From positions 1 through 15,423 of the IMG/VR virus record IMGVR_UViG_2698536618_000026: a stretch of 15,423 bases of DNA. The stretch is one strand, 5' to 3'. Below, piece after piece: positions 14,653 to 15,423 of this stretch. The notes below the pieces were generated by a model. That model saw only the letters and a program-made list of their open reading frames with translations, searched no databases and had not been told where the DNA came from. Each line of letters opens with the position of its first letter. The stretch's first letter is position 1. Made by a program: the position numbers and the translations under genes. The DNA is from a virus (Duplodnaviria > Heunggongvirae > Uroviricota > Caudoviricetes).

Positions 14653-14722
14653 AAAATGATTAGTGCGGTCCGCAAAAAGTATGTCAGTATGTTAAGAGTG
14701 GTTACTTCGCCACACAGCTTAA

Positions 14723-14747
14723 ACCCGCCGCGAGCGGGTTTTTTTAT
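14723..14747 (+). terminator. Rho-independent terminator (tR'-like) downstream of Q
   Basis: Hairpin CCCGC-CGCGA-GCGGG followed by T7 (aaacccgccgcgagcgggttttttt), 70 nt after the Q stop. Confidence 0.65.
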
Positions 14748-14867
14748 GGCTGAAATCGGTCCAGTACAGTAAACGTGCTGGTGGCGGTGAATACCTGTCT
14801 TTCAGCTTGCTGGCTTTTTCGACAAGAGTTATTGGTGTGTCACGTTAACCGAAAAAGGGAAAAAGAC

Positions 14868-15065
14868 ATGCTGAAACAGCAGGATATGACAGAAACCGCC
14901 AGAGTGGTGTTTAATGAATTAAGCGTCACCGAACCGGCGACAGTCGGGGAGATTGCGCAGAATACTTACCTTTCACGCGAACGCTGTCAGTTAATACTGA
15001 CCCAGCTTGTTATGGCGGGTCTGGCAGACTATCAGTTCGGTTGTTACAGACGCCTTCCGCAGTGA
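14868..15065 (+). CDS. Small hypothetical protein (65 aa), possible winged-helix fold
   Basis: ATG at 14868 with AAGGGA SD. Track ORF starts earlier (14775), but that start lies within or just after the terminator. Its stop codon sits inside a terminator hairpin. Confidence 0.4.
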   Translation: MLKQQDMTETARVVFNELSVTEPATVGEIAQNTYLSRERCQLILTQLVMAGLADYQFGCYRRLPQ

Positions 15066-15077
15066 AGGCTTTTTTAT
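15052..15077 (+). terminator. Rho-independent terminator
   Basis: Hairpin GCCTTC-CGCAGT-GAAGGC followed by TTTTTTATTT, overlapping the stop codon of the 14868..15065 gene. Confidence 0.55.
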
Positions 15078-15216
15078 TTGTGGTAAATGGGCGGCTGGTG
15101 GGTGTTAGGGGCACTCACCAGCCATCTGCCCATGCGTTGGGGTCACAAGCAAACCTCAGGCCCATCTGCTTTGCGCAAAAGCGGTATGAGCCTATCAGAG
15201 AAGTGCTTATTGATCT

Positions 15217-15423
15217 ATGGCTAATACTGTAAAAATATCCAGTTGTGAGTTAATCAACGCCGACTGCCTGGAATTTATCCGGTCGTTACCCGAAAATTCT
15301 GTTGACCTGATAGTCACGGACCCGCCGTACTTTAAAGTGAAGCCTGAGGGCTGGGATAACCAGTGGAAGGGCGACGATGATTACCTGAAGTGGCTGGACC
15401 AGTGTCTGGCGCAGTTCTGGCGG
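15217..15423 (+). CDS. DNA methyltransferase (N6-adenine/N4-cytosine class, DPPY motif), 5' partial
   Basis: Hand translation gives MANTVKISSCELINADCLEFIRSLPENSVDLIVTDPPYFKVKPEGWDNQWKGDDDYLKWLDQCLAQFW... with the catalytic DPPY motif close to the N-terminus. Runs off the window end, so it is absent from the ORF track. Confidence 0.75.
   Translation, partial: MANTVKISSCELINADCLEFIRSLPENSVDLIVTDPPYFKVKPEGWDNQWKGDDDYLKWLDQCLAQFWR

Follow-up and report, generated by a model that had tools for sequence, protein, structure and literature searches.

The 3' end of the DNA analysed here, a stretch of 15,423 nucleotides (nt) that represents positions 1 to 15,423 of the Caudoviricetes record IMGVR_UViG_2698536618_000026 and is called the window below, is very probably the ordinary start of the Q-dependent late operon of a lambdoid Escherichia coli prophage of the Shiga-toxin type (Stx-type). 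It carries the antiterminator gene Q, a short spacer with a putative late promoter (pR'), a first intrinsic terminator (t1, or tR'), a small gene for 65 amino acids (aa; orf65), a second intrinsic terminator (t2) and the 5' part of an adenine DNA methyltransferase gene. These parts are all on the plus strand; no strand is assigned to a dyad and a tandem repeat in the spacer. This late-switch module (Q, promoter, leader with terminator, winged-helix gene, t2 and methyltransferase) is already known from many sequenced phages, and near-identical phages have already been deposited and annotated. As a discovery it matters little, since E. coli prophages very commonly carry this standard late-gene switch. 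An earlier reading of the letters alone (the sequence-only reading) had listed its features, all of which are present, with small coordinate corrections only.

The segment 14200–15423, used as a query of 1224 nt, is 99.7% identical to phage PPyecE_EH1910 (LC567835), 97.3% identical to the Stx2 phage 1720a-02 and 96–97% identical to a dozen Stx2a/Stx2d phages. The part from t1 to orf65 was recognized in 2264 of 5426 complete E. coli genomes, with up to eight copies per genome. The gene order in PPyecE_EH1910 is Q, a hypothetical 65-aa gene, a DNA methylase, a toxin–antitoxin-like pair, a TerB-like gene, nanS-p (yjhS), holin, endolysin and spanin; the order is the same in phage 1720a-02, in which stx2A and the stx2 genes come after the methylase, and SfV, phiP27 and many Stx2 phages also share the gene order of the window. 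In PPyecE_EH1910 the holin, endolysin and spanin genes are on the same strand as Q, in a part that lies beyond the window, and the holin begins about 5.3 kb 3' of the Q stop codon. Because that phage is 99.7% identical, the lysis genes should be present about 5 kb further on. So the remark in the sequence-only reading that a methyltransferase stands where lysis genes would be expected reflects an expectation based on lambda, whereas several kilobases of cargo between Q and the lysis genes are usual in Stx-type phages. A tRNA scan found no tRNA genes in the window, which sets it apart from Stx late regions of the kind that bears tRNA genes.

Some other copies of the region are listed here for orientation. 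The chromosome of E. coli O39:NM str. F8704-2 (NZ_CP050998.1, at about 4,733,120) matches positions 14560–14900 with 100% identity, and the t1–orf65 region occurs eight times in that genome. In the loci of CB9615 (E. coli O55:H7; L003, 575–1393) and AH20K059 (L005, 802–1419), an extra gene, which encodes a CPBP-family protease in one of the two and a hypothetical protein in the other, lies between Q and the block of promoter and t1; after orf65, a gene for a 237-aa helix-turn-helix protein and the tRNA genes ileZ-argN-argO replace the methylase.

The Q gene (14272–14652; ATG at 14272, stop codon at 14650–14652, with an alternative TTG start at 14257) encodes 126 aa. Its product matches the whole of the Pfam model Phage_antitermQ (PF06530, E = 1.4e-52), falls in PHROG 79 ('anti-termination protein Q-like') and is about 30% identical to Q21 (PDB 6jnx/6p18) over residues 8–86; the gene is annotated as 'phage antiterminator Q' in LC567835, and NCBIfam has no matching family for either Q or orf65. 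From the PF06530 match and the identity of about 30%, Q is a distant member of the Q21 family, nearer to Q933 and the QuuD-like short Q proteins. Enterobacterial-type Q genes (55–75% identity) were also seen on contigs labelled Bacillus, Vagococcus, Chryseobacterium, Pseudomonas lundensis and Erysipelotrichaceae (L091, L098, L099, L135 and L157), which probably represent contamination or mis-binning.

Predicted late promoter, leader and terminators

The sequence-only reading proposed a module of Q, pR' and tR' with a very short leader, which is supported here, and stated that no clean pR' could be identified in 14653–14722. A consensus scan of 13200–15423 likewise found no sigma-70 promoter on either strand, and the same scan also misses the real, homologous pR'. 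The promoter can, however, be placed by homology to pR' of the Sakai Stx2a prophage Sp5, whose start was mapped by dRNA-seq and whose transcript end, 258 nt away, was mapped by Term-seq, with an RNase E cut (GU|AUU) at +173 (Sy, Lan and Tree 2020, PMC7547250). On the Sakai sequence (L010) these two distances, 258 nt and +173, fit only a +1 at A746, the seventh base after TATCAT, which is the hexamer aligned with CAGTAT in the window. Nucleotides 1–49 of the long transcript StxS-L are 82% identical to 14697–14745 (blastn, E = 5e-7), and they are the only part that matches: the short form, StxS-S, gave nothing significant against the window in blastn. At the sequence level, the comparison made here establishes homology of the promoter and leader with a promoter whose start site has been mapped. 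Because A746 of L010 aligns with A14697, the latter is the predicted transcription start, and pR' would consist of the extended -10 element TGTCAGTAT at 14682–14690 (TG at 14682–14683, T, and the hexamer CAGTAT at 14685–14690), followed by a leader of 49 nt. An alternative register, with TATGTT as the -10 element and +1 near 14700, is possible and would shift the start by three bases.

The relationship of promoters to Q genes was studied in 80 viral contigs with identical orf65, in which the 215 nt upstream fall into at least eight unrelated promoter–leader modules, and every module goes along with a particular kind of Q. Where Q is of the lambda type (PF03589), the module has a lambda-like -10 element (TAAATT), 6 nt and the pause element AACGATGGG; loci with a short Q of PF06530, the type to which the window and Sp5 belong, have a module containing TAAGAGTGGTTAC; and those with a DUF1133-type Q have a third. 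In an alignment of 18 related promoter–leader segments (A3), the A at -11 and the A at +1 (A14697 of the window) are invariant, and the T at -7 is found in at least 90%.

The first terminator, t1, occupies 14721–14745 and consists of an 8-bp stem (AAACCCGC/GCGGGTTT, 14721–14741) with the 5-nt loop CGCGA and a run of seven T (14739–14745), with a free energy (dG) of -11.7 kcal/mol. The second, t2, occupies 15052–15075 and has the form GCCTTC-CGCAGT-GAAGGC (15052–15069) with six T (15070–15075; dG -8.9 kcal/mol); the TGA of orf65 lies inside it, as had been noticed from the sequence alone. A terminator scan of 13200–15423 returned six sites against 2.3 ± 1.7 expected, with t1 first and t2 second. 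In the 80 related loci, a hairpin and T-run of differing sequence is found at the t1 position behind at least eight unrelated promoter–leader modules (CCCGCC..GGCGGG, CCACCGGAAGGTGG, CCCGCTTTATGCGGG and CTGCCGTCAGGCGG, each followed by 5–9 T), and behind Q genes of the lambda type (PF03589), the Q21/Q933 type (PF06530) and the DUF1133 type. Because the structure is conserved over unrelated sequences at the same position, comparison of the loci indicates that t1 is real beyond chance. The site equivalent to t1 in SfV is annotated as a putative rho-independent terminator, and the t2 stem is kept in variants that have another loop (AGTCCT or CTCAGT) and another C-terminus of orf65. A decayed hairpin (dG about -2 kcal/mol) occupies the t1 position in a minority of loci (type C: L031, L035 and L080), which may belong to degenerate prophages; in L035 the lambda-type Q is found about 1.1 kb upstream. 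The minimum-free-energy fold offered another pairing, of t1 with the downstream GCTGGTGG block, together with a sequestered ribosome-binding site (RBS) of orf65, which was rejected for lack of consistent covariation; the fold itself has z = -1.4.

In Sp5, a hairpin homologous to t1, with seven T, lies at +25 to +49 (770–794 of L010; in locus L008 such a hairpin is at 1965–1988), within the 258-nt StxS-L RNA that accumulates in lysogens (PMC7547250). Because the Sp5 hairpin is inside an RNA made in lysogens, t1 would by analogy be read through at least partly without Q; either the first hairpin of Sp5 is leaky in vivo, or an RNA of about 49 nt was missed in library preparation. Gifsy-1 provides an experimental precedent: at the locus that also encodes antQ, the isrK terminator stops polymerase only in part, and the remainder continues into a small open reading frame (PMC4825925). 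The tiered, Q-dependent read-through suggested by the sequence-only reading is not needed, because polymerase modified by Q should ignore both t1 and t2, as it ignores all downstream terminators; any tiering would act without Q, with t1 leaky and t2 as a second lock.

The transcript would begin with the conserved sequence GTGGTTACTTCGCCAC (14698–14713, +2 to +17), for which a 5' stem-loop is a possible predicted fold. In A3, 95.6% of the cells of this stem-loop are paired, with one compensatory pair only, which is no better than in shuffles; the covariation of t1 within closely related promoters is also no better than in shuffles, with too little variation. The best, weak candidate for a sigma-dependent pause element is TACTTC (14703–14708, +7 to +12), whose counterpart in 933W is TACATT and whose final T is not conserved in A3. 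Rfam returned only sub-threshold matches, driven by the terminator, for the Trp leader (21.6 bits against a gathering score of 41) and isrK (RF01394, 18.3 against 50); both identities were rejected because the scores are below the gathering scores and the alignments are carried by the terminator.

The compactness of the module is as had been read from the letters, but it is not special. Between the Q stop codon and the terminator stem lie 68 nt (about 70 nt had been estimated), the leader would be 49 nt long and the distance from the Q stop codon to the end of the T-run is 93 nt. In SfI, which is of the phage-21 type and whose Q is identical to Q21 over the fragment tested, the +1 is at A1674 (set by the numbering of Shi et al., with C at -21 and -13 in the TGAGCA repeats; PMC6606751) and the T-run of tR' ends at 1719, giving a leader of 46 nt and 87 nt from the Q stop codon to the end of the T-run. 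Among 80 loci of other Enterobacterales whose Q is a relative with 50–75% identity, those that have the promoter type of the window directly after Q have the terminator stem 72–79 nt past the Q stop codon. Given the 46-nt leader of the phage-21 type and the 72–79 nt of these relatives, the compact leader is the family norm.

orf65 and the methyltransferase

orf65 is the first gene after tR' (14868–15065; ATG at 14868 and TGA at 15063–15065, the coordinates given earlier for this gene being one base off). The AlphaFold2 model of its 65-aa product (pLDDT 91.4) has the topology H-H-H-beta-beta and matches the winged-helix DNA-binding domains of MarR/OhrR and IclR with TM scores of 0.77–0.79, so that the model describes a minimal winged-helix protein. 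The protein belongs to PHROG 331 (unknown function) and has a weak match to TrmB (PF01978). It has 334 homologs, and among the 120 listed all of the named ones are from Enterobacteriaceae, with identities of at least 81%.

Upstream of orf65 is a conserved block of about 120 nt (14748–14867), which includes the RBS AAGGG, 8 nt before the ATG. From SfV to the window, and behind all promoter types, the block hardly varies, and it is more tightly conserved than parts of the flanking genes. Because relatives have frame-breaking indels in it (not multiples of three), the block is non-coding, and an upstream in-frame extension of orf65 (from GTG at 14775) was rejected for the same reason. A consensus scan found no promoter in the block. 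It contains the symmetries GACA...TGTC and GTTAAC and a near-consensus -35 element, TCGACA, with no acceptable -10 element; possible roles are those of an operator, a leader or a weak orf65 promoter.

If the last of these were the case, orf65 might be an autonomous 'moron', expressed in the lysogen from a weak promoter in 14748–14867 without pR' or Q, with t1 as an insulator and t2 as the end of the transcript. This would fit a gene that is flanked by two terminators, preceded in every promoter type by near-invariant non-coding sequence, and retained in CB9615 and AH20K059, where the downstream cargo is swapped; TCGACA (14819–14824) also matches TTGACA in five of six positions, and one relative has a perfect TTGACA. 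However, besides the negative result of the consensus scan, there is no acceptable -10 element at 16–18 nt after TCGACA (the best is CACGTT), and the conservation of the block is equally explained by a 5' untranslated region (UTR) or an operator of read-through transcripts. We therefore regard an autonomous orf65 as rather unlikely; it would in any case be compatible with Q-dependent expression after induction, that is, with the late-operon reading adopted here.

The methyltransferase gene starts with the ATG at 15217 and continues for 69 codons to the end of the window (15217–15423). It encodes the N-terminal part of a beta-class N6-adenine DNA methyltransferase (PF01555), with the DPPY motif at codons 15319–15330. 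The 69 residues in the window include 68 that are identical in M.EcoGII (sequence from the supplement of PMC11551740). The full-length gene of LC567835 encodes 354 aa with the C-terminal FxGxG motif (FFMGSGST) and is 89% identical both to M.EcoGII and to the enzyme of 1720a-02; the differences from M.EcoGII, about 11% of the residues, are mostly in the central and C-terminal parts. By sequence, the methyltransferase of the window is thus an ortholog of M.EcoGII.

According to Murray et al. (2018, PMC5778455), M.EcoGII is a non-specific adenine methyltransferase that is prophage-borne, unexpressed in the lysogen and deleterious when constitutively expressed. The enzyme of phage 1720a-02 is very similar to it, and M.EcoGII is probably switched on as the prophage excises; antitermination is not mentioned there (PMC5778455). 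A weak Shine–Dalgarno sequence had been ascribed to the methyltransferase in the sequence-only reading; none is found within 12 nt of its ATG. The consensus scan also detected no promoter between t1 and the gene. Its 5' UTR contains a long, conserved hairpin of about 20 bp (15087–15133; dG -33.3 kcal/mol) that is not followed by a T-run; the region 15040–15235 folds with z = -4.9 relative to shuffles, and the 3' arm of the hairpin varies by G-U/G-C changes while the 5' arm is constant. A second hairpin, CTGCTTT..AAAGCGG, is found near 15165–15185. The hairpins and the missing Shine–Dalgarno sequence suggest translational or RNA-processing control of a toxic enzyme.

These features might form a 'double lock', in which leakage at t1 may allow orf65 to be made while t2, the weak RBS and the stable 5' UTR keep the methylase off. 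With pR', a structured leader and two intrinsic terminators ahead of their gene, M.EcoGII-type methylases should be strictly Q-dependent, which offers a genetic reason why they are silent in lysogens; non-specific adenine methylases of this type are widely used as tools. The suggestion that the methyltransferase is a plausible anti-restriction late function has held up, in that the enzyme is an M.EcoGII ortholog encoded in what would be a Q-dependent late unit, and it may well have an anti-restriction role.

Upstream of these genes, Q is preceded by replication genes and by a DUF968/HNH-like gene, as in related phages. The latter (13259–14254 of the window; 1566–2555 of L009), which lies directly 5' of Q, is labelled 'antitermination protein Q' in 1720a-02 and ydfU or HNH endonuclease elsewhere; the label in 1720a-02 looks like an annotation error.

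Candidate Q-binding element and proposed mechanism

Two elements of the spacer could be considered as the Q-binding element: the dyad TGCGG-T-CCGCA (14664–14674, -33 to -23), which overlaps the -35 position, and the tandem 8-bp repeat AGTATGTC/AGTATGTT (14678–14693, -19 to -4), which covers the variable spacer and the -10 hexamer. The sequence-only reading had singled out the latter as a GTATGT direct repeat. The repeat is real, but it is probably not the regulatory element, and the closest Q relatives do not share it. In contrast, seven independent lineages with a window-like Q helix-turn-helix have the dyad TGCGG(T/C)CCGCA, exactly 10 variable nt and a TAnnnT hexamer, and four of them have unrelated leaders. 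The recognition helix of these Q relatives is nearly the same as that of the window (KSEKQIRIEM..AEGF and similar). Other classes of Q helix-turn-helix have other dyads at the same place, and no repeat: TTTACG(A/T)(T/A)CGTAAA for the Q933/QCB class, TGTTATAACA for the QAH class and GCGTACGC for the L068 class. The pairing of helix-turn-helix class and dyad persists where inserted genes put 0.5–1.6 kb between Q and the promoter. These conclusions on classes and dyads rest on manually checked listings, since automated pairing was too crude and gave spurious core matches. Taken alone, the dyad is not significant (10% of shuffles). Because the dyad, and not the repeat, is kept in the nearest Q relatives, the dyad may be the better candidate for the Q-binding element, a preference for which our confidence, based on sequence comparison, falls slightly short of even; the repeat is most likely a coincidence.

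The alternative, in which the tandem repeat AGTATGTC/AGTATGTT is the Q-binding element and holds two Q protomers in tandem as in phage 21, with TAAGAG (14693–14698) as the -10 element and a start near 14705, was attractive because of the period of 8. Tandem direct repeats are the form of the Q-binding elements of Q21 and of the Q of phage L (PMC6606751; bioRxiv 10.1101/2020.10.05.325894), the Q of the window belongs to the same Pfam family as Q21, and a 7/8 match at period 8 is found in only 1.1% of dinucleotide shuffles of the 68-nt spacer (p about 0.011). However, 18% of the shuffles contain a repeat when all periods between 6 and 11 are allowed, and the Q21-type element, with two tandem 8-bp subsites at -27 to -12 that are conserved with Q, was not found in the window, where the repeat is at -19 to -4. 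Moreover, four loci with nearly the same recognition helix (L095, L099, L105 and L126) have unrelated sequence at the position of the repeat but keep the dyad and TAnnnT at the fixed 10-nt spacing, and the repeat is not seen in the other promoter classes. TAAGAG also has no T at -7, and the mapped start of Sp5 falls within it. So, mainly on account of its absence in the nearest relatives, the repeat was rejected as the Q-binding element of our preferred reading, and we consider this alternative quite unlikely.

Returning to the dyad, we propose the following mechanism. The promoter pR' would lie in the 68-nt gap after Q, with its extended -10 element at 14682–14690 and its start at about A14697. 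Without Q, most transcripts would end at t1 as a 49-nt leader RNA; those that leak through t1 would cover orf65 and be halted again at t2 (15052–15075), and the methyltransferase, with its weak RBS and strongly folded 5' UTR, would be off in the lysogen. Upon induction, Q would be made from the early rightward transcript and, in the manner known from the literature for Q21, would load onto polymerase paused just past pR' at a putative pause element, perhaps guided by the dyad TGCGG-T-CCGCA. Polymerase loaded with Q would resist t1, t2 and all later terminators, so that transcription would extend through orf65, the methyltransferase and other cargo genes and reach the genes for lysis and morphogenesis last. 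The methyltransferase would presumably methylate adenines of the replicating phage DNA, so that the progeny could escape restriction in new hosts. Taken one step further, the short Q proteins of the Q933/QuuD-like branch of the Q21 family, with that of the window among them, might recognize a dyad (centred at about -28, at a fixed 10 bp from the -10 element) and not the tandem direct repeats used by Q21, the leakiness of t1 might serve to supply lysogens with orf65, and t2 and the folded 5' UTR might keep the toxic methyltransferase off until Q appears; as a joint proposal this is possible but doubtful. The expression of Shiga toxin 2 is controlled by Q933-like antiterminators, whose Q-binding site had yet to be defined; the dyad is a candidate for it that can be tested.

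Several points weigh against this picture. The placement of pR' is derived from homology to sequences of other phages, and the first base of the -10 hexamer is C in the window, as against T in all but one (L013) of the 17 relatives in A3. There is no recognizable -35 element, the aligned TTAGTG (14660–14665) requiring a 19-nt spacer, and no convincing sigma-dependent pause element (TAnnnT) in +1 to +20, where TACTTC lacks the final T. Sy et al. call the second hairpin of Sp5 tR' and do not mention the first (PMC7547250). The dyad (-33 to -23) is further upstream than the Q21 binding element (-27 to -12), and its co-occurrence with Q could also stem from genetic linkage. The block 14748–14867 might hold a weak, Q-independent promoter of orf65, and the methyltransferase is cut by the end of the window, so that its completeness is assumed from the near-identical phages.

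That t1 instead ends the early rightward operon (the Q transcript), with the late promoter 3' of t1, is highly improbable, for although the hairpin is close behind Q (in some relatives immediately past the Q stop codon) and the consensus scan found no promoter between Q and t1, the segment 5' of t1 has a homolog in a promoter whose primary start is mapped, lambda-type Q loci have a textbook lambda-like pR' (TAAATT, 6 nt, AACGATGGG) 5' of the same terminator position, and in CB9615 and AH20K059 the promoter and t1 stay together 0.8–1 kb away from Q.

Comparison with known systems

The arrangement in the window resembles that of phage 21 (Q21, pR'21 and tR'21), the prototype for Q proteins of this kind, which also has a Q of PF06530, a promoter immediately after Q (predicted for the window), a very short leader and a single-hairpin terminator. 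However, the Q of the window has 126 aa as compared with 162 aa in Q21, and the two are about 30% identical. In addition, pR'21 has a perfect TTGACA as its -35 element, tandem TGAGCA repeats at -25 to -12 and the pause element TAAGCT at +2 to +7, whereas the window is without a -35 element, has a dyad at -33 to -23 and shows no clear pause element. In phage 21 tRNA genes and the lysis genes directly follow, whereas cargo genes follow in the window.

In SfV and phiP27 (Q, terminator, orf47, methylase, and lysis or stx genes), the cassette of terminator, orf65 and methyltransferase is the same, with 82–91% DNA identity from about 14690–14722 on. SfV differs in having a lambda-type Q (PF03589, 250 aa) and a lambda-like pR' (TAAGAT followed by AACGATGGG), and the part of it that is homologous to the window starts precisely with the terminator. 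M.EcoGII and M.EcoGI of E. coli O104:H4 C227-11 are likewise prophage-borne and have the same beta-class order of motifs, with DPPY first and FxGxG last. The isrK-orf45-anrP locus of Gifsy-1 (Salmonella) also produces a short terminated RNA in a locus with a Q-like antiterminator, with partial read-through into a small open reading frame, but there is no sequence relationship, and an antirepressor is found downstream there in place of the methyltransferase found here.

The 933W and Sakai Sp5 phages share with the window a homologous Q of PF06530, a homologous segment from -10 to +49 that includes the first hairpin (82% identity), and two serial terminators after pR'. Sp5 differs in having another helix-turn-helix class of Q, with the dyad TTTACGATCGTAAA, and in the roughly 200 nt between the hairpins, which yield StxS in place of orf65. 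StxS is a 3' fragment of 74–85 nt that is located upstream of tR' and pairs through its seed with rpoS and stx1B (PMC7547250), and its functional part is absent from the window. Only the last 33 or so codons of the methyltransferase are kept in phages of the 933W/Sp5 type, just after tR' (2220–2318 of L008; about 1029–1125 of L010). Because this 3' remnant of the methyltransferase survives after tR', the StxS region of 933W and Sp5 looks, by sequence, like a replacement or deletion derivative of the orf65–methyltransferase cassette.

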